A DNA stretch of 64,000 nucleotides, from the NCBI RefSeq assembly GCF_006345805.1, contig NC_043005.1, forward strand, positions 87,296,001-87,360,000, written 5' to 3'. Below, in pieces: positions 3,078 to 62,570 of this stretch (positions within the stretch are counted from its first letter, which is position 1; every line of letters begins with the position of its first letter). The notes under the pieces are model-generated. The model did not search any database and was not told the origin of the DNA. It saw only the letters and a list, made by a program, of their open reading frames with translations. The DNA is from Octopus sinensis (taxonomy: Eukaryota). Both the position numbers and the translations under genes were made by a program.

Positions 3078-3951
3078 TACGTGATCTGATGAATAAGTGT
3101 CCGGACTGTTGCCATAGTAACGAAGCTAAAACACGGAGAGTAAAACGGCATGGCATAGATTGACCTTGAACTCTGTTGTATATGTGCAATACGTTTTAAC
3201 GTTTTAGGTCACTTCCGCTGTTTACAGCAGTGCTTGGCAGGAAGGTGTGTAGCTTGTGATCGTCGCATTGACCACGACAGAGGAAGTTCATTAGAAAATC
3301 TCTCAAATTTTACCAAAATCTTGGCGATACTTGTTCAGAGACCAATGCAAAGTTTTCAAAAAGTCTTCATCGTTTTCGACGAAATCAAGGAGATCTTGTG
3401 CAACCTAAACCCGAGCGTCTTGTAGGTCAGCTGAAAGCAGTTTCGGCACAAACTTGGCAAGCAAGAGTCTCACACCCGAAATCCTCAGTGATAATCAACT
3501 CAACTGAACCGTAACTAATCTGCAAATCCTCTGATAACTCACGGATGGTGATTTCACGTTTTCCCCCCGAGCTGTACGCACATCTGCAGCTTGTGGGTCA
3601 CCCAGTTACATTCGTCAATATCGGCATTTTTTCTATAATCTTAGAAACGTCTGCACGACTCGTACACTTGTGTCCGACTCAAACACTCCTCATCATACAC
3701 TTTCTGCAACTTTTGTACGCCTCTGAGCAGATACCTCCATGACAATTTTTTCTGTCATGTCAATCACACACTACACACCTTCCTTCTAAGTACTGCTGTA
3801 AACAGCGGAAGTGAGCAAGAACTTTAAAACTTAGTTGGCATGCACAACAGAGTTCAAGTTCAAACTTTGCCAAGAGACATTACTCTGCGCGCTTTAGCTT
3901 CGTTTTCGTTGCTATGGTAACAGTCCGGATACTTATTGATCGGACCCCGTA
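3078..3951 (-). mobile_element. Mariner-type DNA transposon deletion derivative with about 180-bp imperfect TIRs
   Basis: 3078-3260 is the inverted counterpart of 3765-3951, with TA at both ends. The interior (minus) retains an N-terminal transposase: VYDEECLSRTQVYE..RRF, ENREITIRELSEDLQISYGSVELIITEDFG and KFVPKLLSADLQDARV (WVPxxL-type motif). No catalytic domain. Confidence 0.85.
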
Positions 3952-4069
3952 TATATTGATATATACATATGAATTTTTGTATGTATGGTGCAACGATTTA
4001 AAAAGAAACAGCACGAACGGAATGAGGTTTGGAATATAATGCACTCTTTTAACGCCGCAGTAGAAGAGG

Positions 4070-4105
4070 TCTTAATGTTTCGCTTGTTAGACGTTCATCA
4101 GAAGA
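4070..4105 (-). ncRNA. Degenerate minimal type I hammerhead ribozyme motif
   Basis: Minus strand TCTT-CTGATGA-ACGTCTAACAAGC-GAAAC-ATT-AAGA. Stem I and core intact; stems II and III eroded. Flank resembles 37251-37284. Confidence 0.5.
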
Positions 4106-5419
4106 AAGGAAAGGTGAAGACCAGAAGGAGTGAGAACGTGAAATATGAGTGGCAAGAAAAGGCAAGTAATCACGAAGCCGACTTGCATATCATTTTGCGG
4201 AAGACGTTTATATATTAGAGATGAAAGGGCTAAGTGTGCAGATACAATAATGTATATCTCTCTGGAAGTGAGCATAAGATTGGGTGGTGCGAATGTATGT
4301 TAGTATGGAGGGCGTATGTGTATAGAGGTGTGAATTTGTGGCGTTGGGTAGCCAGGGTGTGGAGTGTTATTGTGTATGTGTGATGGGTGATGGGTGGGAA
4401 AGAGTCTGAATGAGAAGGTATGATTGGGTACGAGCATAACAGACTAAAGATATTGGAGTAGCCCGTGGATGAGCAATAGCAATGTAGAAGCTGTTATTCA
4501 TGTGAGTACTAGTGTATAACATGTACGTAGAGGGAAGCTTCAAACAATTATTTAAAAGATAGTGTGATAGAGAGAGAGAGAGGCAGAGAGGGAGACACAA
4601 TGTGTGTGTATGTGAGGGAGAAATATATGAAATTTGTGAATGAAGAAGTCGAAGAAATATACGAATGTAACCCATAATGGCAAACATACGGCAGGTTTGG
4701 TAGAGTATCTAGAGTACTGGATGAAGTTGGTATAAATTAACGTAGAAGTATGAATTATGGTGAACAGAGCAAAAACCTGACGTGAAGTACCTGGTGTAAA
4801 AAGAGAAAATTCTAATGTAGTTAGTATAGGTAGGGAAGTAGCAGTAGGGAATACACAGTCACACAAACACACACTCACAGAAATGTGTGTGTGAGAGAGA
4901 GAGAGTGTGTGTGTGTGAGATAGAGAGGGAGAGAGAGAGAGAGTATGTTTGTGTGTGTGTGTAGTCACAAATTACAGAGATATAGTTTGATGAAATTTTA
5001 TTAACAATACGAAAATTCTAATCTCACAAATTGTTTCGTAACTTAAAAACATGTAAATAATTTATATTATGATATTTAATAACAAATAAATTACTTGCAT
5101 GCCTGCGTGAATGCAAAATGCAAGAAATCTCTGAAACTAATGCAGAATTTAAGCTACGTCCTCAGGCGAAAGAAATTCTTTGTTTAATCGTAAATTCTCT
5201 ATGTTCCTATAGGAAAGCAAAGTAAAAAATGTTAAAATATTATGGAAGACGATAATAATAAAATTGATATAAATAAATAAGATTTTCTAAGAAATAGAAT
5301 GAAATTTTCGTAATGTAATTTAAAAAGTAACTTGTAGATATTATTCGTAAAATAAAAGAAAAGATATATATTTATTACTGAAAGTATTAAAGATAAAAGA
5401 TCATAAACGCAGAGAAAAA

Positions 5420-44961: not shown

Positions 44962-45500
44962 GGATTCAAATTCCGCCGAGGTCTACTTTACCTTTCATCC
45001 TTTCTAGGTCGATTAAATAAGTACCAGTTAGGCACTGGGGTCGATGCAATCAACTTAATCCGTTTGTGTGTCCTTGTTTGTCTCCTCTGTGTTTAGCCCC
45101 TTGTGGGTAGTAAAGAAATGGGTATTTCGTATGCCGCTACGTTCTGAGTTCAAATACCGGCGAGGTCGACTTTGCCTTTCATCCTTTCGGGTTCGATTAA
45201 ATAAGTACCAGTTACGCATTGGTGTCGATATACTCGACTTAATCCGTTTGTCTGTCCTTGTTTGTCTTCTCTATGTTTAGCCTCTTGTGGGCAATAAAGA
45301 AATAAGAAACCTTAGCATGCCTGGCGAAATTCTTAGCGGTATATCGTCTGTCTTTACGTTCTTAGTTAAAATTCCGTCGAGGTCGACCTCACCTTTCATC
45401 CTTTCCAGGTCGATAAGTTAAGTACCATTTACGTATTAGAGTCGATCTTATCCACACACCCACTGAACAAAAATTTCGGCCCTTATGCCTAGAATAAGAA
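44962..45500 (+). mobile_element. Tandem array of SINE family 1 (partial B unit, B unit, A-tail unit)
   Basis: Junctions AAAGAAATg|GGTATTTCG near 45120 and AAAGAAATA|AGAAAC near 45303. Confidence 0.9.
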
Positions 45501-49680: not shown

Positions 49681-50232
49681 TGTCCTTGTTTGTCCCCTCT
49701 GTTGGTAATAAAGAAATAGGTATTTCGTCTGCCGTTACGTTCTGAGTTCAAATTCCGCCGAGGTCGACTTTGCCTTTCATCTTTTCGGGGTCGATAAATT
49801 AAGTACCAGTTACACACTGGGGTCGATTTAATCGACTTAATCCCTTTGTCTGCCCTTGTTTGTCCCCTCTATGTTTAGCCCCTTGTGGGCAATAAAGAAA
49901 TAAGAAACCTTAGCATGCCTCGCGAAATTCTTAGCAGTATATCGTCTGTCTTTACGTTCTGAGTTCAAATTCCACCGAGGTCGACATCGCCTTCCATCCT
50001 TTCGAGGTCGATAATACAGAAAATAATGTATACTGAAAATAATGTAACGATACTAATTCCAGAAGGAGGTGAGCTGGCAGAACCGTTAACACGCCGATTT
50101 CAAATTCTGTCGGGGCCGACTCTATCTTTCATCCTTTCGGTGTCGATAAGTATCAGTTAAATAATGGGATCGATATCATCGGCTTACCCCTTCCTCGAAA
50201 TTGCTGGCCCCGTATCAAAATGTGAAACCAAT
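49681..50232 (+). mobile_element. SINE family 1 cluster (B tail, B unit, truncated unit, separate degenerate copy at 50064-50232)
   Basis: Junctions AAAGAAATA|GGTATTTCG at 49718/49719 and AAAGAAATA|AGAAAC at 49902/49903. Confidence 0.88.
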
Positions 50233-51272: not shown

Positions 51273-52747
51273 ATAATTTAAGATGTCTAGAGAATTCTAG
51301 TTTAAAAGCGATTGCCTAATTCTGTAATGTTTTATAGAAGATATATTTGCTTTTTTGTTATCCATGTGTAACTCAGATTTACTAATGTGTAAAGAAAACA
51401 TAGTCAGACAAATTCAGAGTAACTCTCATAAATCAAGAGCATTTTGAAGGCAGCCTTCCATAACGCTTGCACTGTCTCAACCTGCCGAGTAAAATAAGTA
51501 CATCCTATTTTACGGAGTATATTACATGCATTTATAATTGTAAATAATATTTATAATTACTAGGCAGAGAGATAAGAATTCGTATGAATGTCTGTATAGA
51601 ATATATCTCAAGATAATCTAGCGTGGTAAAGACATCATTTTCACCTTAGAAGACACAGACATATATCTTTAAAGTACTTAACTTTAATATGCATGATTAC
51701 AATCTTAATTAATTGGTTCTAAATATGCTACTTTGTTTCTTTTTCTTATCAAATTTCTCTAAGTTTTCTCTCTTTTCATCATTCTATTTCGCTACTTTAC
51801 TCATTACTCACTAAAAAAGAGCTCCAGTATCTCTTCAAAAGTTTAAGATACAGAAATACACCGAGCGTAAATGTTGTGTTCTTAGTTACGATAATTCGTT
51901 TTCCGTCATTGTTGGTTGAGATAAATAATTATAATTATGATTTTATCTCTGATCTTCTGTATATATCTCCTGTACATATGGAATATATCGGATATATTCA
52001 GGAACTAATTAACAACATACTTTCTTTTACGTTAAAACAAAACCATTAAGTAAAATTCTAGAAGCTGATTAAAGTATCCAATATATTCAATGTTTTGTTA
52101 AATCTACAATTATATACAAGCCAAAAATATTTCAAAATAAAAATGTGAAATTGTCTTTGAAATGTATAATTTCAACATTTAGGAAGCCAAAACAAAGAAA
52201 TTTCGTCGTCACTCGGAAGCGAGTACGTCGTGATATATTAGTTTCTTTCGAGATTTTTCGTATTGTTTTCAGTCCCTATGTTGTGGTGAGAAGAGAAGAC
52301 ATAGACACGATGTCTGCCCTCCCAACCATGTAAAAGCTGAAAATCCAGGGTATAACCGTAGCACGGTGATGGAAATGGCTTTCAGTTAAATAGAATGGGA
52401 GCAATGTGCAACGATGTGCCCAAACCAAGGACAAAATATTCGTTCGACCCAGGAATCGTACCAACGACCTTTATGATCGTGAGTCGAGCGATGTAACTTA
52501 CAAGCAATTCGACTTTATTTTTAAATATTCCATAACAAAATCACAGGTCGTTATCTTTGATCTATTATTCGTATCATTCATCGGCCAAGGTGAAACTTAT
52601 TGGGGCTAAACAAGATCCATGCGGCTAGGTTGCAAACTTGTTACCACACAGCTACTCATGAGCCAAGGTTTAATACTTATGCATAATATTTACAATTTGT
52701 CTGACGTAAATATTAAACACACGATATGTTTATTATTTAACCGCGAA

Positions 52748-53521
52748 AGGCGGCGAGCAAGCAGAAACGTTAGCACGCCGGGCGAAATCCATAGCCTTAT
52801 TTCGTCTGCCGTTACGTTGAGTTAAAATTCCGCCGAGGTGGACTTTGCCTTTCATACTTCGGGGTCGATAAATTAAGTACCACTTACGCACTGGGGTCGA
52901 TATAATCGACTTAATCTGTTTGTCTGTCCTTGTTTGTCCTCTCTGTGTGTAGCCCCTTGTGGGTTGTAAAGAAATAGGTATTTCGTCTGCCGCTACGTTT
53001 TGAGTTCAAATTCCGCCAAGGTCGATTTTGCCTTTCATCCTTTCGGGGTCGATTAAATAAGTACCATTTACGCACTGGGGTCGATATAATCGACTTAATC
53101 CGTTTGTCTGTCCTTGTTTGTCCTCTCTGCGTGTAGCCCTTTGTGGGTAGTAAAGAAATAGGTATTTCGTCTGCCGCTACGTTTTGAGTTCAAATTCCGC
53201 CAATTTGCCTTTCATCCTTTCGGGGTCGATTAAATAAGTACCATTTACGCACTGGGGTCGATATAATCGACTTAATCCGTTTGTCTGTCCTTGTTTGTCC
53301 TCTCTGTGTTTAGCCCCTTGTGGGTAGTAAAGAAATAGGTATTTCGTCTGCCATTACGTTCTGAGTTTAAATTCCGCCGAGGTCGACTTTGCCTTTCATC
53401 CTTTCAGGTTCGCTTAAATAAGTACCAGTTACGCACTGAGGTCGATATAATCGACGTAATCCGTTTGTCTGTCCTTGTTTGTCTTCTCTGTGTTTATCCC
53501 CTTGTGGGTAGTAAAGAAATA
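52748..53521 (+). mobile_element. Head-to-tail array of four SINE family 1 B-tail units (one head, then bodies of about 177-184 bp)
   Basis: Units restart at GGTATTTCGTCTGCC at 52977, 53161 and 53338; each ends GTAAAGAAATA. Confidence 0.95.
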
Positions 53522-53531
53522 GGTATTTCGT

Positions 53532-53871
53532 GATTGCTGGAGAAGAGATGTCTGTCGGAGTGTACGTTCCAAAAGAGAAGGAAGCATGTTGCACGAGTGT
53601 TGTGCGTGAAAGGAATCGTGTGAATATACCGGAGAAAAAAAGGAAAAAAAAAAGGTTCCAGTGGTAGATTGGGACTTGTGGGGTCGGAGCGTGGCCTCAT
53701 CATCGCTTCATTTGTATTGTCTTTCTATTGTTAATTCCATTCGATTTTTGTTTTATATATTTTATTTAAATTTTTAAAGTCACATTATATGTAAAATCAT
53801 ATCGCTTTACTGGTCCCATCAGTTGTTCTGTCCATTTCTATGTTTGGTTCCCGGTGGACAATAAAGAAATT
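53532..53871 (+). mobile_element. Tx1/L1-like LINE 3' fragment with 10-bp target-site duplication
   Basis: Homologous to 61600-61931 (LEKRCLSECTFQK...HVARVLCV). Flanked by GGTATTTCGT (53522-53531) and GGTATCTCGT (53872-53881). Confidence 0.88.
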
Positions 53872-54040
53872 GGTATCTCGTCTGTTTTTACGTTCTTAGT
53901 TTCAATTCCGCTTTGGTCGACTTTGCTTTTCGCCCTTTCGGGGTCGATAAATTAAGTACCAGTTGCGTAGTGTATTCATCCAATCCACTGGCCTCCTCCT
54001 CCAAAATGTTGGGCTTTGTGCCTAGAGTAGAAAAGGATAT
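53872..54040 (+). mobile_element. SINE family 1 A-tail body, distal part of the target SINE
   Basis: GGTATcTCGTCTG...GGGGTCGATAAATTAAGTACCAG...TTGTGCCTAGAGTAGAAAAG. Confidence 0.85.
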
Positions 54041-54228
54041 TTAACATTCCTAGGTGGGTCATTGCTGTCCAACCACATGGTTCTGGGTTTGGTGGCAACT
54101 TGGGTAAGTGTGACTTGTACTATAGCCGCAGGCTGACAAAAGCATTCGGAAGACAGAATCTAAAACAAACCCGTCATCGTTAGCTCCTACACGCATTTTT
54201 TTTTCTCTCCTTGTTTTTTCTTCTGTGT

Positions 54229-54268
54229 GTCTTTCTGTCGAAGAACGTAGGCTCGAAACGTAAAAGAC
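54229..54268 (+). ncRNA. Hammerhead-like motif with non-canonical core
   Basis: GTCTTT-CTGTCGA-AGAAC-GTAG-GCTC-GAAAC-GTA-AAAGAC. Perfect 6-bp stem I, A6 changed to U, loopless palindromic ACGT stem III. Confidence 0.6.
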
Positions 54269-54375
54269 TTTTTCTATTCCTGAGCGCTATACTAATACAT
54301 TTGTTTGTTTGTACTCCACCTGCCTTCGTCTTTTGTTTATTTTCGTAAACGTTCCCTTTATATATATATATATAT

Positions 54376-54409
<34 letters not shown>

Positions 54410-54420
54410 ATATATATAAT

Positions 54421-54924
54421 GATGTTTTCGATCTAATTTGGATTCTTTGCAATCAATTTGAAGTTTTCAATTGGTGCTCAAGCCTTGACAAAAAAAGGAG
54501 AGTTAAACTATATCAGCCGTAAGGGGATACATGTCTATCTTATCTAACTCGTCCAATAGAGCCCACCAGTTGGTATCTGAAAAGTTCGATGAAATAACTC
54601 ATCAACACTGCAATAGCTTCTACCAAAAGATGCTCCATTATGTCGACAGGTCTGAACAAGGGGACATAATAGAAAAAGAATCATTCGTTTATTATCTCCC
54701 CTCGTTCAGAATCTATCGCAGTGTCCATGAGTTATTTCATCGAACTTTTCAGATATCAATTGGTGGGCTCTACTGGACGAGTTAGATAAGATGGACATGT
54801 ATTCCCTTACGGCTGATGTAGTTTAACTCTCCTTTTTTCAAGGCTTGAGCACCAATTGAAGAATTCAAATTTGATTGCAAAGATTTCAAATCTGATGGCA
54901 AAGAATCCAAATTAGATCGGATAC

Positions 54925-54926
<2 letters not shown>
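54421..54926. mobile_element. MITE-like foldback element, copy 1 (about 195-bp imperfect TIRs plus an inner 20-bp inverted repeat) in (TA)n
   Basis: 54422-54616 mirrors 54714-54926; TCTGAACAAGGGGACATAAT pairs with ATTATCTCCCCTCGTTCAGA. Confidence 0.8.
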
Positions 54927-54999
<73 letters not shown>

Positions 55000-55504
55000 G
55001 ATGTTTTCGATCTAATTTGGATTCTTTGCAATCAAATTTGAAGTTTTCAATTGGTGCTCAAGCCTTGACAAAAAAAGGAGAGTTAAACTATATCAGCCGT
55101 AAGGGGATACATGTCTATCTTATCTAACTCGTCCAATAGAGCCCACCAGTTGGTATCTGAAAAGTTCGATGAAATAACTCATCAACACTGCAATAGCTTC
55201 TACCAAAAGATGCTCCATTATGTCGACAGGTCTGAACAAGGGGACATAATAGAAAAAGAATCATTCGTTCATTATCTCCCCTCGTTCAGAATCTATCGCA
55301 GTGTCCATGAGTTATTTCATCGAACTTTTCAGATATCAATTGGTGGGCTCTACTGGACGAGTTAGATAAGATGGACATGTATTCCCTTACGGCTGATGTA
55401 GTTTAACTCTCCTTTTTTCAAGGCTTGAGCACCAATTGAAGAATTCAAATTTGATTGCAAAGATTTCAAATCTGATGGCAAAGAATCCAAATTAGATCGG
55501 ATAC

Positions 55505-55506
<2 letters not shown>
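55000..55506. mobile_element. MITE-like foldback element, copy 2 (tandem duplicate, 580-bp period)
   Basis: Nearly identical to 54421-54926; ORFs at 54531 and 55111 differ by one residue. Confidence 0.8.
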
Positions 55507-55552
<46 letters not shown>

Positions 55553-55934
55553 AAGAGAGAGAGAGAGAGAGAGAAATAATTATATGTATTTCTCTAAGTT
55601 CTCCACTACAGTTCGACAACCAGTTTTATTGTGTTAACGTTTCTGGAACTTAGCGATTCTGCACAAGAAACCGATAGAATAAGTACCAGGCAAAGAATGA
55701 AACAAATAATAAGCAAAGGTTTCGAGTCATTCGACTAAAATTCTTTAAGGCGGTGCCCCAGCATGACCGCAGTCGAATAACTGAAACGAGTAAAAGAAGG
55801 AAGAGTCTTTCAGCCGGAGAGTAAATCGCAGTAATTTCTTGGATTGTGCCGATCAGAACAATAATAATGTCTGTGAAAATGGAAACTAGTTAGGAATAAC
55901 GGGGACACATATTTGCATGAACTACCATAATACC

Positions 55935-56397
55935 TTTTCTACTATAGGCACAAAGCCTGAAATTTTGTTTTGTTGGACTAGCCGATTACATTGACCCTAG
56001 TGAAGGTGGCGAGGTGGCAGAAACGCTAGCACGCCGGGCGAAATGCGTAGTCGTATTTCGTCTGCCATTACATTCTGAGTTCAAATTCAGCCGAGATCGA
56101 CTTTGCCTTTTATCCTTTGGGGTTCGATTAAATGAGTACCGGTTACGCACTGGAGTCAATATAACCGACTTAATCCATTTGTGTGTCCTTGTTTGCCCCC
56201 TCTTTTTTTAGCCTCTTGTAGGTAGTAAAGAAATATACATTGACCCTAATGTTTCACTGGTGCTTAATTTATCGACCCCTCGAAAGGATGAAAGGCAAAA
56301 TCAACCTTTGTCAAATTTGAACTCAGAACGTAGCAGCGAATGAAATACTGCTAAATATTTCGCCCGGTGTGATAACGATTCTTCCAGCTCGCCACCT
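55935..56397. mobile_element. SINE-1 B copy (56003-56235, +) nested in a SINE-1 A copy (-) with 16-bp target-site duplication
   Basis: TACATTGACCCTAGTG (55987-56002) and TACATTGACCCTAATG (56236-56251) flank the insert. Confidence 0.88.
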
Positions 56398-56404
56398 TAT
56401 GAAC

Positions 56405-56710
56405 TACCATAATATGTTGGCTGGTTTAAATATGACAAAGTATGGTATTATTATTTATTGTGTTGAGTCAAATGTTTTTCGTTATTCTGGTTACTTATTT
56501 GCTGTATTCTTCAAATAGCAAGAAAAGCAGCCAACCGTTCAAGGTAGAGGCCATTGTGTTGAACCGTCTGAAGACACTTTTCTTCCAGTTCTTTAATGCC
56601 GCCCTGATACCAGTTCTTTTCTTTTCCATCGAGGTGAAGAATTCTTTCACTGAAGCTTGCACCACCTCTCGGTTGATGAAACGTCTCGAGCGTAGGAGGT
56701 GAGCGCAAAT
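56405..56710 (-). mobile_element. Mariner transposase C-terminal remnant
   Basis: HLLRSRRFINREVVQASVKEFF, then frameshifted KEKNWYQGGIKELEEKCLQTVQHNGLYLE, like the mariner F...GI..L..RW..V...G.Y end. Confidence 0.75.
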
Positions 56711-56711
56711 A

Positions 56712-56927
56712 TTCTCTTCTACTCCAGGCAAAAGGCCCGAAATTTTGCGGGAGAGCGCCAGTCGGTTAGATGGACACCAGTATGTAACTAGTACTTAATT
56801 TATCGACTCCGAAAAGATGAAAAGCAAAGTCGACCTCGGTGGAATTCGAACTCATGACGTAAAGACAGACGAAACACCGCTAAGCATTTCGACCGGCGTG
56901 CAAACGTTTCTGCCAGCTCGCCGCCTT
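56712..56927 (-). mobile_element. SINE family 1 A-tail, full length
   Basis: TTCTACTCcAGGCAaAAGGCCCGAAATTTT...CAAAGTCGACCTCGG...TTCTGCCAGCTCGCCGCCTT. Confidence 0.9.
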
Positions 56928-57581
56928 GAAGGAAACTTCACCGCTCGTCCCTTTGAATTCTATAAAAACATTCTCAGTTGAGCACTGAGGTCGATGTGAT
57001 CGAATTAGCCCCTCCCCCGATTGCTCGTCTTTTTTTGCTAGAATTTGAAACTGTTATGCTAATGTTATGAATTATGTCAGTTCACGGGGCCTGTTTTAGG
57101 GTCCCCGAAATTTGTGAGAAGGACAGTATTTTCAAATGGAAAATCTGGCTTGAATGCTTGCTACCGAGTAGACTAATCTAAAGGACCTTAATCATCATGC
57201 CGGTCAGAAGATCAGGCTTATGGGTGCATTCAATCTAGCCTCTCACCACCATCATTTAGGCCATGGTGAGATTCGAACTCTTAACACAAAGCGCGTAAAT
57301 ATATTACGCTAGGAAACCAATCCAATGTTCTTACAATTCCATCAATTCTCTGCCTCGAATTGGCGTGTTTGTTGTGCTGCAGAACGATGAAATTGAGTGT
57401 CTGTCTCGGCAGGACTCGAGCTGAGAGCACGGGAAGTCGGAAGAAAATTCGCGAAGCATTCAGACAGACGCTTGGACGACTGTGGTGACTCGACACTTAT
57501 AGATGAATGCTCATTAAAGTAATTATCGTTCTCCTCGGAAAGGCAAAGACAAGTTCATAACTATACACACACATATATAGT

Positions 57582-57753
57582 TATTCTTTTCTACTCTAGA
57601 CAAAAGGCCCGAAATTTTGGGGGAGGTGGCCAGTCGATTACATCGACCCCAGTACGAAACTGGTATTTAATTTATCAACCCCGAAAGGATGAAAGGCAAA
57701 GTCGACTTCGGTGGAAATTGAACTCAGAACGTAACGACAGACGAAATACCGCT

Positions 57754-57811
<58 letters not shown>

Positions 57812-57995
57812 CTTTACTACCCACAAGGGGCTAAACACAGAGGGGACAAACAAGGACAGACAAATGGATTAAGTCGATTAAATCGACCCCAGTGCGTAAC
57901 TGGTACTTAATTTATCGACTCGGAAAGGCCGAAAGGCAAAGTCGTCCTCGGCGGAATTTGAACTCAGAACGCAACGACAGACGAAATACCGCTAC
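57582..57995 (-). mobile_element. Two headless SINE-1 copies (A-tail 57582-57754, B-tail 57808-57995) separated by (CA)n(TA)n
   Basis: Both end at GACAGACGAAATACCGCTA on the + strand. Confidence 0.88.
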
Positions 57996-58154
57996 ACACA
58001 TACATAGTTATTAGTAAAGTCACTAGAGATCAAACGAAATGTGTTTGCAGTATTTATTCATTTTTTTTTCGTTTGTTTTTGAGGTGAAATTCTACGTTTA
58101 AATCCAGCCGAGTTCAAAACAGATCATTCATACTTCTCTTCCGTTCACTAAGTG

Positions 58155-58365
58155 GTTTCAAATTTTGGCTCAAAGCCAGTAATATTGGGGCGGTGATAAA
58201 TCAATGACATCGACTCCCCAATGCTCAACTGGTACTTATTTTGTTGACACCGAAAGGATGAAAGGCAAAGTGGATTCGGCGTAAATGGAATTCTGAACTT
58301 AAAGACGAACAAAATGCCTTTAAGCTTTTTTTCCACTGCGCTAACGAGTCCGCCAGCTCACCGTC
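58155..58365 (-). mobile_element. SINE family 1, degenerate
   Basis: CTGGTACTTATTTT..TGACaCCGAAAGGATGAAAGGCAAAGT...CTAACGA.TC.GCCAGCTC. Confidence 0.8.
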
Positions 58366-59054
58366 TTTTTAGATTAAAGTACGAATATAGGGAGGTAGGT
58401 TAGGGGAATTTTGATAATGTTATGCGTCATGCGTGGCTGCATTTATTTTGATTCCTAGTAATCTGTGTCCAAATCGCTGTTAGCTTAATTGGTTAACCCA
58501 TCGCTGGATTAAGAAGACCACTTAGCCCGTAAGCGATTGTAAAAGAGTCATCGCTTTTCCAGGCTTGTGACCAAGATCTTTCATTCAACCATACTTCCGG
58601 ATTCTTGCGATACAATATCTCAATTCTGAAAGAAGCAACAAGGTGTAGAAATATTTATCCAGTTAACCCTGATGTCCGCTGAAAATCGATTCTTCTGGGG
58701 GAAGGAAAAGAACCCGAAATGAAGTGCTTTGCTAAAAGACATTCAAATCGAACTCACAGCAGTGAGTTCAAATCGAACTCAGGAGCCCAATACGTAAACT
58801 GTTTGGGAAGAGGCCTTCAGGTACGCACTCACACATGCATAGGTGCAACCCAAGGTAATTTGAAAATCGATTACGTTTTTACAATTTTCAATCTACGGTG
58901 AAATATCTCAATTAACCGCCTCTATATATCCACTATATAGGTCACATACATACACACACACATATATATATATAATATATACATACACACATATAAACAA
59001 ATATATACGCAAACATACACACATGCACACACACATACATATACATACATACAT

Positions 59055-59101
<47 letters not shown>

Positions 59102-59468
59102 TATTCAGATGCATATATCAGTAGTGCGCATTCTTGTCTAAGAAATATATGATTATACCAAAAAACATGAAACGGTTTGCTGAACTAATTTATCACAGCG
59201 ACATTATATATATGTTCATCTCGTTCTTATCCCGCTGTTGTCAACAACTCGTATATCAAAATAGCAGGCCATGCATCAGCGAGATATAACTGAGAAGCGT
59301 TTGACTTCGACGTCTTACAAACCATGCTATGTAATGTCAAGTTCGTACATGACTTTTTTAACATCTCTTGGTTTTACGTTTTGATAGATACAAGCTAAAA
59401 ACAAAAACAAACAAAAAGAAACACAAAGAGAGGTGATAGGTAAAGATTTTTAATATATCCGTATTGAT

Positions 59469-59747
59469 AAGGTAGCAAGCTGGCAGAAACGCTAGCACGC
59501 CGGGCGAAATGCGTAGCGGTATTTCGTCTGCCGTTACAGTCTGAGTTCAAATTCCGCCGAGGTCGACTTTGCCTTTCATCCTTTCGGGGTCGATTAAATA
59601 AGTACCAGCTACGCACTGGGGTCGATATAATCGACTTAATCCGTTTGTCTGTCCTTTTTTGTCCTCTCTGTGTTTAGCCCCTTGTGGGTCGTAAAGAAAT
59701 AGGTATTTCCTCTGCCGCTACGTTCTGAGTTCAAATTCCGCCGAGGT
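59469..59747 (+). mobile_element. SINE-1 full B unit plus a 46-bp restart, directly 5' of the Tx1-like LINE
   Basis: Head at 59469, tail AAAGAAATA to 59701, then GGTATTTCcTCTG...CCGAGGT (59702-59747). Confidence 0.9.
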
Positions 59748-61931
59748 ATGTATGCCAGACTTGTTCGGGCAGCTACTGCATAACGTGTACACGAACTGAC
59801 AATAGAATGGGTTTATCCCCAGATCTGATTATTCCCAGATCGCCGGGGCGTGGTGATCAGAAAGGACCGGACAAGCGGGATGTTTTAGATAATTTCAGGG
59901 CCATCATTCTGTTAAACGCTGAAAGACGAATTTGGCCAAGGTTTTCGCAGAAAGGTTGGGGCGTGTCACGAGAGGCATAGCCGGGGAGGCACACACATGG
60001 GCCATCTCAGGCAGAACCATTCAGGATAATCTCCATCTTATGCGCTATACCACAGAGATGGTTGGTGATAACTCTGGCAAAGGTGGGGCATTGGGGCATT
60101 TATACCAATCTAAAGCTTTTGATAGGGTCGAACTTCGATACCTGGCGAATGTTCTTGCGATCTTTGGCCTGGACTTTGGATTCCTCAGGTGGTTTATCGC
60201 TCTGTATCATATGACTCGATAATTCGGATGAATGGTTTCCTTTTGAAGCCGTTCTGCATCAGATGCTTGGTTCCTAAAGGATGTCTGCTCTCACCACTTT
60301 TGTATGTGGTGGCTCTTGAGCACCTACTGCGAAAGTTGAGTGACATCTCGTGACAACCAGGTTTAGAGGAGTTTGTTTCGGCTTCCGCGTACGTTATCAT
60401 TATCAGCGTTACCACAGTATAACGCCTAGGTGAAGTGAGTAAGGCTGTTGAGGTTTACGAGACGGTGGCAGGAGATCAACCGGGAAAAGTCGGTCATCTT
60501 GCAGCTCGGCACCTGGGTTGGCAAGTCGATGCCGTCAAACAGCGTTGTTGGGCACTGGGCGGAGGGACCGGTTGAATTGCTGGTAGTCTGGTTGGACTAG
60601 GCCTCCAGATAGAGAAGGACTAGACGGAGGTTTCGAACAGGGTGGCTGCAATAGTCGAGACCTGGTCTTGGCGGTGGCTATCCCTGAAAGTGTGAGCGGA
60701 GGTGGCCAATATGTTTATCGCATCGGCCATTACCTACCGTCTGACCGTCGTGCTCTGTTTGGATTCGTGTGTGATCAGGTTGGAGAAGGAGCTCTTTCAC
60801 GTAGTCAGAAGCCGTTAACGGGAGGTTTAGGGATGCCTTGGTTAATGATGCGCAGGTATACGTTGAGATTGAGGCATCTCTGGATCCTCCTGGATGGTGA
60901 ACGGGTGTGGTCTCTGCTAGCCAGACAAATGTTCCCCGAGTTCAAATTGTTTTTGCGAACAGGAAGCCCGGTGTTCTTGTAGACCGAGGTCGAGTAAGCA
61001 GCATATGGAGTGTCGTAAGGCCCTCTTGCTATTCCGGCGGTCGGGCAACGCCAGCGGTGGGGGGTTCTACACGTTTTTTATATAGTGGGTTGGTAGAGTT
61101 TAAATGGGACGATGGCCTGGGAGCGACTCTAGGTCTCGGGCATGTTCAACTTGACAGCCTGTTCCACCGCACATTCTGCTTGAGAATGTTAGACAATTTC
61201 CAAAAGTCCTTGACCTGGCAATGTTACAGGGGCGCCTTGTCCGTTTGGGATAAACTCGCAAGACATGGAATGTCTTACTCTCCGACCTGTCCAAGATGGA
61301 GGGGAGCAGGGATACCATCCCTCACGCTACCGTCCAGTGCCCGGGGATATCTGAAATATGAGTTTATACTGAACACCTTTTGTCCGGCGAAGGAAGAGTA
61401 CAGCTGTCGACTGGGTCAATTATAAAAATTAACCCACCGGAATTTTTAACAAATGAAGGTAAGAATTGCTTTCTCACTGTTGTAGCAATAGCGAAAGAGG
61501 TAGTATGGAAGTCTAGGATAAAATGGATTAAGACAGGTAACTTTATCTCCGGCCAGGAGTTAAGATCGTTCTTCACTTTTCACTTGAGAAGGAAAGTGTG
61601 GCTGGAGGAGAGATGCCTGTCGGAGAATATGTTAAAAAAAAGATGGAAGCATCTTGCAATAGTGCTGTGCGTGCAAGAAACCACGTGAATAGGCGATTGA
61701 AGAAAAACAAGAGATGAAAGAAGTACCAGCGATAGATTGGGGCTTAAGGGGTCAGAGCGCGGCCTGATCATCGCTACATTCGTGTTGTCTGTATTGTTAA
61801 TTTCATTCGATTTTTTTATATTTTATATAATTTTCATATTCATATTTATGTAATATCATAACGTGTTACTGACCCCAATCAGTTGTTTTGTCCCATTCTT
61901 TGTGTAGCCCCCTGTGGGTAATAAAGGAATT
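59748..61931 (+). mobile_element. Tx1/L1-clade LINE, 5'-truncated ORF2 pseudogene (RT, C-terminal zinc knuckle, 3' UTR)
   Basis: DNFRAIILLNAE, AKVFAERL, GRTIQDNLHLMRY, QSKAFDRV, KGCLLSPLLYVVALEHLL, GGLGMP, PTCPRW...HATVQC, VAIAKEVVWKSR. Many stops and frameshifts. Confidence 0.92.
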
Positions 61932-62095
61932 GGTATTTCGTCTGTTTTTTATGCTCTGAGTTCACATCCTGCACAGGTCGATATTGCGTTTCATCTGTTC
62001 GGGATCGATAGTACCAGTTGCGTACTGGAGTCGGTCTAATCGACTGGAACCCTCCCTCAAATTTTCGGGCCTTGTGTCTAGAGTAGAAAAGAATA
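61932..62095 (+). mobile_element. SINE-1 A-tail body, distal part of the target SINE, diverged
   Basis: Starts GGTATTTCGTCTG immediately after the LINE tail; ends CCTTGTGtCTAGAGTAGAAAAGAAT. Confidence 0.85.
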
Positions 62096-62319
62096 TTTCA
62101 GTATAGATTCTTGTTTTTCTTTCTTTTTGCCTATTATGTACTCCGGAATGGAAATGTTACTGTTTGTCTGTCGCGGATTTTCGTTTGCATCGTCCTCTTA
62201 AATTAAAATAGGGTTTGATGTTGGTCTGAAGAAATGCTACTCAAATGTTTAAAATACAAATTTTACGCAATTTTTCACTTGGGGCATTGAAAGCAGAGTT
62301 TGTACAGAAACAATTCTTT

Positions 62320-62570
62320 TATATTTAATCTGTTACTTTCCTCACTCATTGGACTGCGGCCATGCTGGGACACAGTCGACAAGAATATTTTAGTCGAATG
62401 TATCGACACCAGGACATATTTTTAACGCCTGGTACTTATTATATCGGTCTACTCTGCCGACCCGCTAATTTACGGGGACGTAAACACACCAGCACTGGTT
62501 GTCAAGCGGTGGTGCGGGCGGGGAGGTGGGGGACAAACGCAGACAGAAAGACACAAACACACGAAGGACT
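62320..62570 (-). mobile_element. SINE family 2, 3' part
   Basis: GACTGCGGCCATGCTGG...TACGGGGACGTAAACACACCAGCA.TGGTTGTCAAGCG. Confidence 0.8.

Follow-up and report, generated by a model that had tools for sequence, protein, structure and literature searches.

In Octopus sinensis, a long interspersed element (LINE) inserts at one position within a short interspersed element (SINE), and a subfamily of the same SINE appears to use that position as well. The system was recognized in a window of 64,000 nucleotides (NCBI RefSeq assembly GCF_006345805.1, contig NC_043005.1, positions 87,296,001 to 87,360,000 of the forward strand) and was then examined at further loci, designated by L numbers, from the 2.72 Gb of genome searched. 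That the LINE targets the SINE is near certain. Beyond this, comparison of sequences makes it probable that SINEs of the subfamily B1 enter the same site in their relatives, and that the resulting tandem arrays then grow by local unequal exchange.

SINE positions are numbered according to a natural B copy at window positions 59474-59701, in which a head (1-44) is followed by the target (45-57), by a shared body extending to about position 163, and then by the B-type end, which other copies replace with an A-type end. As judged by eye against the consensus, an A-box-like motif occupies positions 8-18 and a B-box-like motif positions 72-82, and the last 45 nt of the B-type end (184-228) form a LINE-like tail. 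As the earlier note had observed, both LINE fragments in the window end directly before the target, which reads GGTATCTCG at 53872 and GGTATTTCG at 61932, and in each case an interrupted host SINE of A type continues from position 45 (53872-54042 and 61932-62098; features are on the plus strand unless stated otherwise). The shorter fragment (53532-53871), a 5′-truncated copy comprising the end of the second open reading frame (ORF2) and the 3′ untranslated region (UTR), is preceded by a 10-nt upstream copy of the target (53522-53531), a duplication that the earlier note had described. The longer one (59748-61931), a decayed, 5′-truncated copy running from the reverse transcriptase (RT) region to the 3′ end, has no clean duplication and is preceded instead by SINE positions 45-90 (59702-59747, 91% identical to the reference). 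Both are old copies with broken frames, with 83.6% (53536-53871 against 5020-5360) and 81.6% (against 3118-5360) identity to the young copy L282.

Outside the window, the preference for this site is nearly absolute. Old loci were collected with a query consisting of the LINE 3′ UTR without target sequence, which gave 42 matches; in all 30 that were examined, the LINE 3′ end lies at SINE position 45, in one of them after an internal insertion. The 3′ ends of a young subfamily, found by protein search with an RT fragment, lie there at 28 of 28 loci. A pattern for exact young tails, which also excludes A at flank position 12, matched 142 times, and among the first 100 listed, 96 are followed by the target with at most two mismatches (counted by eye), three are borderline, and one is clearly off target. 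The 5′ ends are likewise preceded by SINE sequence in 8 of 8 near-full old copies, in all 28 old subfamily-1 ends that were reached from 30 loci (with a target copy in 27), and in 29 of 29 young full-length copies, which have the head upstream, the body downstream, and a target duplication of approximately 13 bp. Thirty such young copies had been fetched, of which L313 was dropped as a duplicate of L285; L285 and L313, one on a chromosome and the other on a small contig, agree in both the LINE insertion and the upstream flank and probably represent an uncollapsed haplotype. In L325, a truncated young copy, the LINE directly adjoins a SINE head. Ten young LINE copies are 99.5 and 99.8% identical at their two ends, whereas the heads and bodies that flank them have mean identities between loci of only 87.6 and 87.5%, and the hosts are a mixture of A and B types. 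The SINE is therefore the target of the LINE and not a part of it, and this contrast contradicts the refuting case named in the earlier note, a SINE body fixed within the LINE.

Full copies of the LINE are 5.35 kb long and contain two ORFs. ORF1 is a 520-amino-acid frame with a zf-CCHC zinc knuckle (22.9 bits against a cut-off of 20.8), and ORF2 encodes an apurinic endonuclease-type (APE) domain, an RT, and a C-terminal zinc finger (Pfam Exo_endo_phos, RVT_1, and zf-RVT, above curated cut-offs). In the young subfamily the ORFs are intact, the loci found with the RT fragment having open frames of 1134 amino acids, and many copies carry only one to five private changes, so the family must have been active very recently; two older subfamilies have different 5′ ends. 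A separate ORF1 with a zinc knuckle is a feature of Tx1-clade LINEs, and from its architecture and behavior the element is likely a member of that clade, an assignment that a quick RT tree built without authenticated Tx1 references does not settle, as its deep forks stay open. The closest solved relatives of the LINE proteins are the human L1 endonuclease and ORF2p, the closest named relative of ORF2 is from Argonauta hians (53-58% identity), and the sole match named TX1 owes that name to automatic annotation, at 31% identity. For the endonuclease, a model built from a single sequence had a pLDDT (predicted local distance difference test) score of 40 and was not used. The 5′ starts of the LINE (L036:1873-1895; L282) are loosely B-box-like and lie near the spacing of the displaced B-box.

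The two copies of the target that flank each young LINE carry information on how the 5′ junction is made. Across the 29 young loci, these copies are identical at target positions 1-7 throughout, and a non-reference first base, C, is present on both sides in 17 of the 17 loci that have it. From position 8 onward, the upstream and downstream copies sometimes differ. L284 and L305 have in common a position-8 variant found only in the upstream copy, together with a LINE nucleotide variant private to the pair, and L289 and L303 have another upstream-only target variant in common. At positions 15 and 16 the upstream sequence is constant, and the downstream sequence differs in 5 and 10 of the 29 loci. 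The simplest reading of this pattern is that LINE RNA would start inside the upstream SINE of the donor locus, and that its complementary DNA (cDNA) would anneal to the overhang at the target, where mismatches could be settled in favor of either strand. The presence of donor-derived bases in the 5′ duplicate thus suggests that LINE 5′ ends are joined by homology, as in R2. For R2Bm, pairing of 27 nt of ribosomal RNA at the 5′ junction has been proposed (PMC6895275).

The SINEs that share their 3′ end with the LINE are also concentrated at this site, but are held to it far less strictly. The tails of SINE and LINE match at 80-86% over 44-45 nt, and for the last 44-45 nt of the long window copy (tail at 61887-61931) the match to B tails, pointed out previously, is 80-84%. 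Within the window there are 12 matches to a tail pattern, against none in 100 shuffles; the target 9-mer with one mismatch allowed is barely enriched (22 matches against a mean of 12 by chance). Eleven of the tail matches are SINE tails, of which six run into position 45, two into head position 12 (at 45305 and 49903), and three into other sequence. The B-tail junctions listed in the earlier note hold to within one base; the first falls at 45121 rather than 45120, and the tail that precedes 49719 has an internal deletion. Genome-wide, 20,513 of 70,250 exact B1 tail matches (~29%) run straight into the position-45 target, a count of exact junctions that represents a minimum, and in evenly spaced samples totaling 800 kb, 21-24 of 74 tails are followed by it. 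The first base at tail-target junctions is G in 20,513 cases and another base in 1,392. Because B SINEs are also inserted elsewhere, where they keep the head and are flanked by duplications of mostly 13-22 bp as scored, their specificity is far below that of the LINE.

The subfamilies B1 and B2 differ in the sites they occupy. In an array-enriched set from which 28 mixed tails were set aside, position 45 accounts for 94 of 125 B1 tails and for 0 of 26 B2 tails, and position 12 for none of the 125 B1 tails and 6 of the 26 B2 tails. Among outer duplications in unique DNA, 10 of 20 for B1 start with GG, versus 0 of 9 for B2. Head position 12, which lies inside the A-box-like motif, is thus seen as a second self-site for B2-type tails (window 45305 and 49903; L103, L150, L091, L036, and L318); the two window cases have an unusual head variant in common and may be a local duplicate. 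A different element at L105, L106, and L108, whose tail is related, ends directly in a (TATC)n microsatellite in all four cases seen, which suggests a microsatellite-targeting relative. A 23-bp tail pattern gave 48 matches, 9 of them on target, and 20 of the 39 off-target matches were fetched; these comprised 16 SINEs, 4 other elements, and no copy of the SINE-targeting LINE, and the pattern is consequently not LINE-specific. Four loci (L181, L187, L191, and L198) end in the same 23 nt with neither SINE nor SINE-targeting LINE upstream, and two of these precede one GTTGTTA flank. SINE heads and tails do not fold better than shuffled sequences.

Insertion of B1 at position 45 would place SINE units in tandem, as in a four-unit array at 52748-53521 in the window. 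Here, a B1 SINE with its head (52748-52976; 90% identical to 59474-59701 over positions 2-228) is followed by three headless B1 units comprising positions 45-228 (52977-53160, 53161-53337, and 53338-53521), with neighbor identities of 91.7, 97.6, and 92.1%. In a set of 179 units and 33 arrays, with 20 loci picked for exact junctions, the added units are likewise 184 bp long and headless, with up to 10 seen; a random sample contained 43, 6, 2, and 3 loci with 1, 2, 3, and 4 tailed units, respectively. Adjacent units have 22-42% of their rare variants in common in every bin along the unit, against 2-4% between loci, and middle pairs reach a mean identity of 96.1%. Since this sharing extends through every bin, the arrays probably grow or homogenize locally, and they exhibit the tandem partial-SINE units and local homogenization that are features of SINE-derived satellites. 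A model of independent draws, with sharing confined to positions 45-57, was ruled out by the evenness of sharing across the whole unit.

How arrays begin is suggested by the smallest of them. Nine of 13 two-unit arrays have identities of 84.6-90.6%, at the background of 90.1%, and B1 units located just upstream of old LINEs show no relatedness among themselves (of 2607 rare variants, 80 are in common) or with the downstream host (6 of 106). These observations argue that the first step is the insertion of an outside copy. The mutual unrelatedness of the upstream B1 units also ruled out a co-mobilized B1 carried as a 5′ extension of the old LINE. B2 is the last unit in all five arrays that hold it, and divergence is greater in the last unit than in the first in 21 arrays versus 11 (p = 0.009). 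Position 45 is G in 19 of 39 array heads versus 94 of 96 junctions, as would be expected if B1 selects hosts of the G type and exchanges their head for its own by homology; such replacement by the donor head would account for added units being headless. The SINE self-insertion proposed in the earlier note is therefore upheld for founding units, which are usually unrelated to their neighbor, and not for arrays as a whole, which are not stacks of independent insertions. Self-insertion plus local growth is the likely origin of these structures.

A pathway of five steps would accommodate these results. Site-specific insertion of the LINE into unrelated SINE copies with a duplication of approximately 13 bp is seen directly as sequence, and the LINE endonuclease likely nicks at position 45, between the A-box-like and B-box-like motifs, to prime reverse transcription. 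The pattern at 5′ junctions suggests that upstream SINE sequence from the donor would be carried in the LINE RNA, that the cDNA would pair with the target's top strand, and that the junction would thereby be formed by homology. A B SINE RNA holds the whole target head, and a homologous join may thus yield one head and a 184-bp headless unit. The direct repeat created in this way would, as the shared variants suggest, expand and homogenize locally. Finally, the two kinds of insertion might have opposite outcomes for the host, as the LINE would part its two promoter boxes by 5 kb and silence it, whereas insertion of B1 would leave an intact head and body, such that B1 gains a copy at the host's expense.

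Several observations weigh against this interpretation. Most 5′-truncated old LINE copies have no SINE head upstream, and 16 of 20 old LINE 5′ ends have no 3′ end within approximately 8 kb; the missing heads and lost 3′ parts may be due to decay. Tail-preceded sites make up 23 of 84 target sites in the random sample, yet none of the 29 young full-length LINEs occupies one (~1e-4, binomial), and the young LINE therefore seems to need head context. The earlier statement that each insertion regenerates a target consequently fails for the young LINE, whose full-length copies are at head-preceded sites in 29 of 29 cases. By contrast, a B tail lies upstream of the old subfamily-1 LINE in 20 of 28 cases (p = 8e-5), and at these loci two orders of events would give the same structure: either tail junctions were the preferred sites of this subfamily, or the head-plus-duplication upstream of it was subsequently invaded by B1. 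With regard to the 5′ junction, two loci retain variants of the target, at positions 9 and 13, in the upstream and downstream copies alike, and the argument from donor-derived bases within positions 8-12 involves few loci. The stability of a hairpin at the target is not above that of shuffles (z = -1.3). Approximately 70% of B tails lie away from position 45. Two of the 13 dimers have identities of 99.4-100%, a finding that one unrelated insertion would not account for; these two leave room for RNA-level multimers or microhomology duplication. Lastly, there are sister LINE families, with 71-73% ORF2 identity and frames of 1131-1132 amino acids, that carry the same tail and have other targets.

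The existence of these sisters bears on the identity of the partner that mobilizes B1. At 10 sister loci, the 3′ flanks start with GGTAGT, GGCATG, or AGAAAT. The tail is present in four sister copies from other families, and parts of B2 are closer to a sister. Because sister LINEs with other targets carry the same tail, the partner of B1 is uncertain. Old copies of the SINE-targeting LINE need G at position 45 as B1 does (G in 28 of 30 old junctions, never C), and for this reason they are the best candidates for the partner, and candidates only. The idea that a SINE subfamily captured the tail of this LINE thus survives in part, as a SINE subfamily with a LINE tail does accumulate at the same site; the tail, however, is not tied to the SINE-targeting LINE. 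Among the sister copies, L299 and L300 run into ORF1-like sequence of a related LINE, L297 and L298 into the 5′ end of another copy in tandem, and L291/L294 and L295/L296 into shared non-SINE repeats.

It could quite plausibly be that different sister LINEs moved B1 and B2, with endonucleases preferring GGTAT-like and AGAAA-like sites, respectively, such that self-insertion is a by-product. The shared tail and the sister flanks fit this proposal, as does the first base at the junction, since B1 resembles the old LINE in its G whereas the young LINE has C in 17 of 29 junctions. A loose 5-bp preference alone does not, however, place 29% of tails at one site, and the sister flanks come from only 10 loci. 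The proposal is in any case compatible with LINE-guided self-insertion followed by local growth, and mostly changes the identity of the partner. A bolder variant, which we regard as rather doubtful, is that the SINE RNA itself steers insertion: transcripts reading through past the tail would copy the parent's site (GGTAT for B1, AGAAA for B2) and pair with nicked DNA, with head homology completing the 5′ join. It is suggested by the disjoint self-sites of B1 and B2, subfamilies that differ at only a few bases, and by the parallel split of their sites in unique DNA.

The arrays themselves might have been made at the RNA level, by Pol III (RNA polymerase III) read-through, with multimers or re-primed RNA reverse transcribed in one event and related units arriving together. 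Pol III terminates at T4, and 126 of 179 units are missing a T4 run; in addition, one outer duplication surrounds the whole array at L035, L169, L176, and L177, and two units in L035 are 100% identical. Insertion of the host itself would, however, produce such outer duplications just as readily, no pair of loci has more than three rare variants in common (33 arrays, a small sample), and identity of at least 97% is reached by just 41 of the 15,606 between-locus pairs. A first self-insertion would still be required for the junction. We consider this origin unlikely. It is more improbable still that arrays form without any SINE insertion, through a solo B1 in a GGTAT site whose body is duplicated by microhomology between position 45 and the downstream duplication of that same B1. 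GG at the start of outer duplications, in 10 of 20 B tails with T at position 216, and the two near-identical dimers are consistent with this route, and unequal recombination between target duplications has been named as a source of SINE arrays (PMC11481361). It cannot, though, yield B1 upstream of B2 or an A host, arrays without a GGTAT outer flank (L168 and L177), B1 units that lie 5′ of a LINE and show no relation to the host body, or the unrelated dimers, and these dimers contradict microhomology as the main route. Finally, it is scarcely conceivable that the LINE transcript includes the SINE head and body as fixed components, which move along with it. A few donor-derived SINE bases at the LINE 5′ junction, and outer duplications flanking head and body at some loci (L306, L307, and L310), could be read in that way, but flanks only 87% alike and of mixed subtypes around LINEs of 99.5-99.8% identity, locus-specific variants in the inner duplications, and the direct joining of L325 to a head all speak against it.

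Other features of the window include a B1 SINE with head (59469-59701), part of which serves as the numbering reference, and a full B SINE inserted off-site beside an antisense SINE copy (56000-56235, with a 13-bp duplication at 55987-55999 and 56236-56248). An array at 44965-45455 consists of a B unit, a headless B unit, and a host SINE entered at position 12, and at 49719-50012 a headless B unit precedes a host SINE that is likewise entered at position 12. Upstream of two truncated old LINEs, SINE body extends 46 nt (59702-59747) and approximately 65 nt (L050:4390-4494) beyond the cut site, rather than 13 nt, as a result of either a long duplication or later deletion. On the minus strand, at 57575-58000, two SINE bodies separated by a B tail and (TA)n have had their heads replaced by (TG)n that reaches the last bases before the target. 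Two tandem, near-identical long inverted-repeat elements, approximately 580 bp apart and resembling miniature inverted-repeat transposable elements, are located between (TA)n runs at 54417-55505. ARAGORN found no tRNA gene in the window, and Rfam gave no tRNA match for 52500-62400. The SINE body may resemble the Deu/Nin central domain. The main octopus SINEs are of the tRNA-Core and tRNA-Deu types (PMC8967140).

Zepp of Chlorella is an autonomous LINE that nests in its own copies, not a SINE nesting via a partner. Closely comparable are Tx1-Mar and SINEU of crocodilians (PMC4494074), Tx1-type LINEs and partner SINEs that both prefer another repeat; there, too, tandem SINE copies sandwich a duplication and the SINEs fall short of the strictness of the best families (13-90% flanked). 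Their target, however, is a Mariner DNA transposon, neither a SINE nor the SINE's own family, and no homologous head loss is reported for SINEU in the text available. Xenopus Tx1L in Tx1D, Keno in U2 snRNA, and Kibi and Koshi in microsatellites are likewise APE-type LINEs with a fixed multicopy site, for which the same text names no SINE target and no self-inserting non-autonomous partner. R1 and R2 have non-autonomous partners at the LINE's site, the SIDEs (short internally deleted elements), with tandem R1/SIDE arrays separated by a 14-bp duplication, and R2 RNA retains upstream target sequence with proposed pairing at the 5′ junction; unlike the present system, the target is the 28S gene, the R2 endonuclease is restriction-like, and SIDEs are deleted LINEs rather than SINEs carrying their own target (PMC3414825, PMC6895275). 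Locally homogenized tandem units of partial SINEs resemble the squamate SINE-derived satellites and jerboa Dip/B1 multimers (PMC10702118) and the tandem SINEs of bivalves (PMC11481361), of which one species has up to 4-15 units. The available text of these papers proposes neither a fixed endonuclease site nor a partner LINE to seed the arrays, and the jerboa multimers, unlike B1 arrays, are full-length SINEs. The octopus system accordingly differs from those known in that its target is a SINE and its passenger carries its own target. In the openly readable main text of papers, we found no description of a cephalopod SINE-targeting LINE or self-inserting SINE, and the portion available of PMC13282606 contains no "target" or "nested" passage; prior annotation of the SINE-targeting LINE, for example in Repbase, Dfam, subscription papers, or supplements, is quite possible.

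If this interpretation is correct, SINEs join the safe-harbor targets of site-specific LINEs, and there is a concrete route by which dispersed SINEs, which constitute approximately 12% of O. vulgaris DNA (PMC13282606), are seeded into tandem repeats. The intact-frame ORF2 of the SINE-targeting family and its sisters, 71-73% identical with other targets, would offer a comparison for examining how the specificity of an APE endonuclease changes, and the donor-derived bases at 5′ junctions would be an uncommon natural source of evidence on the later half of APE-LINE integration, which is poorly understood. Were insertion steered by SINE RNA, target choice would be inherited with the RNA, with a self-reinforcing overwriting of relatives' heads that would have seeded tens of thousands of minisatellites.

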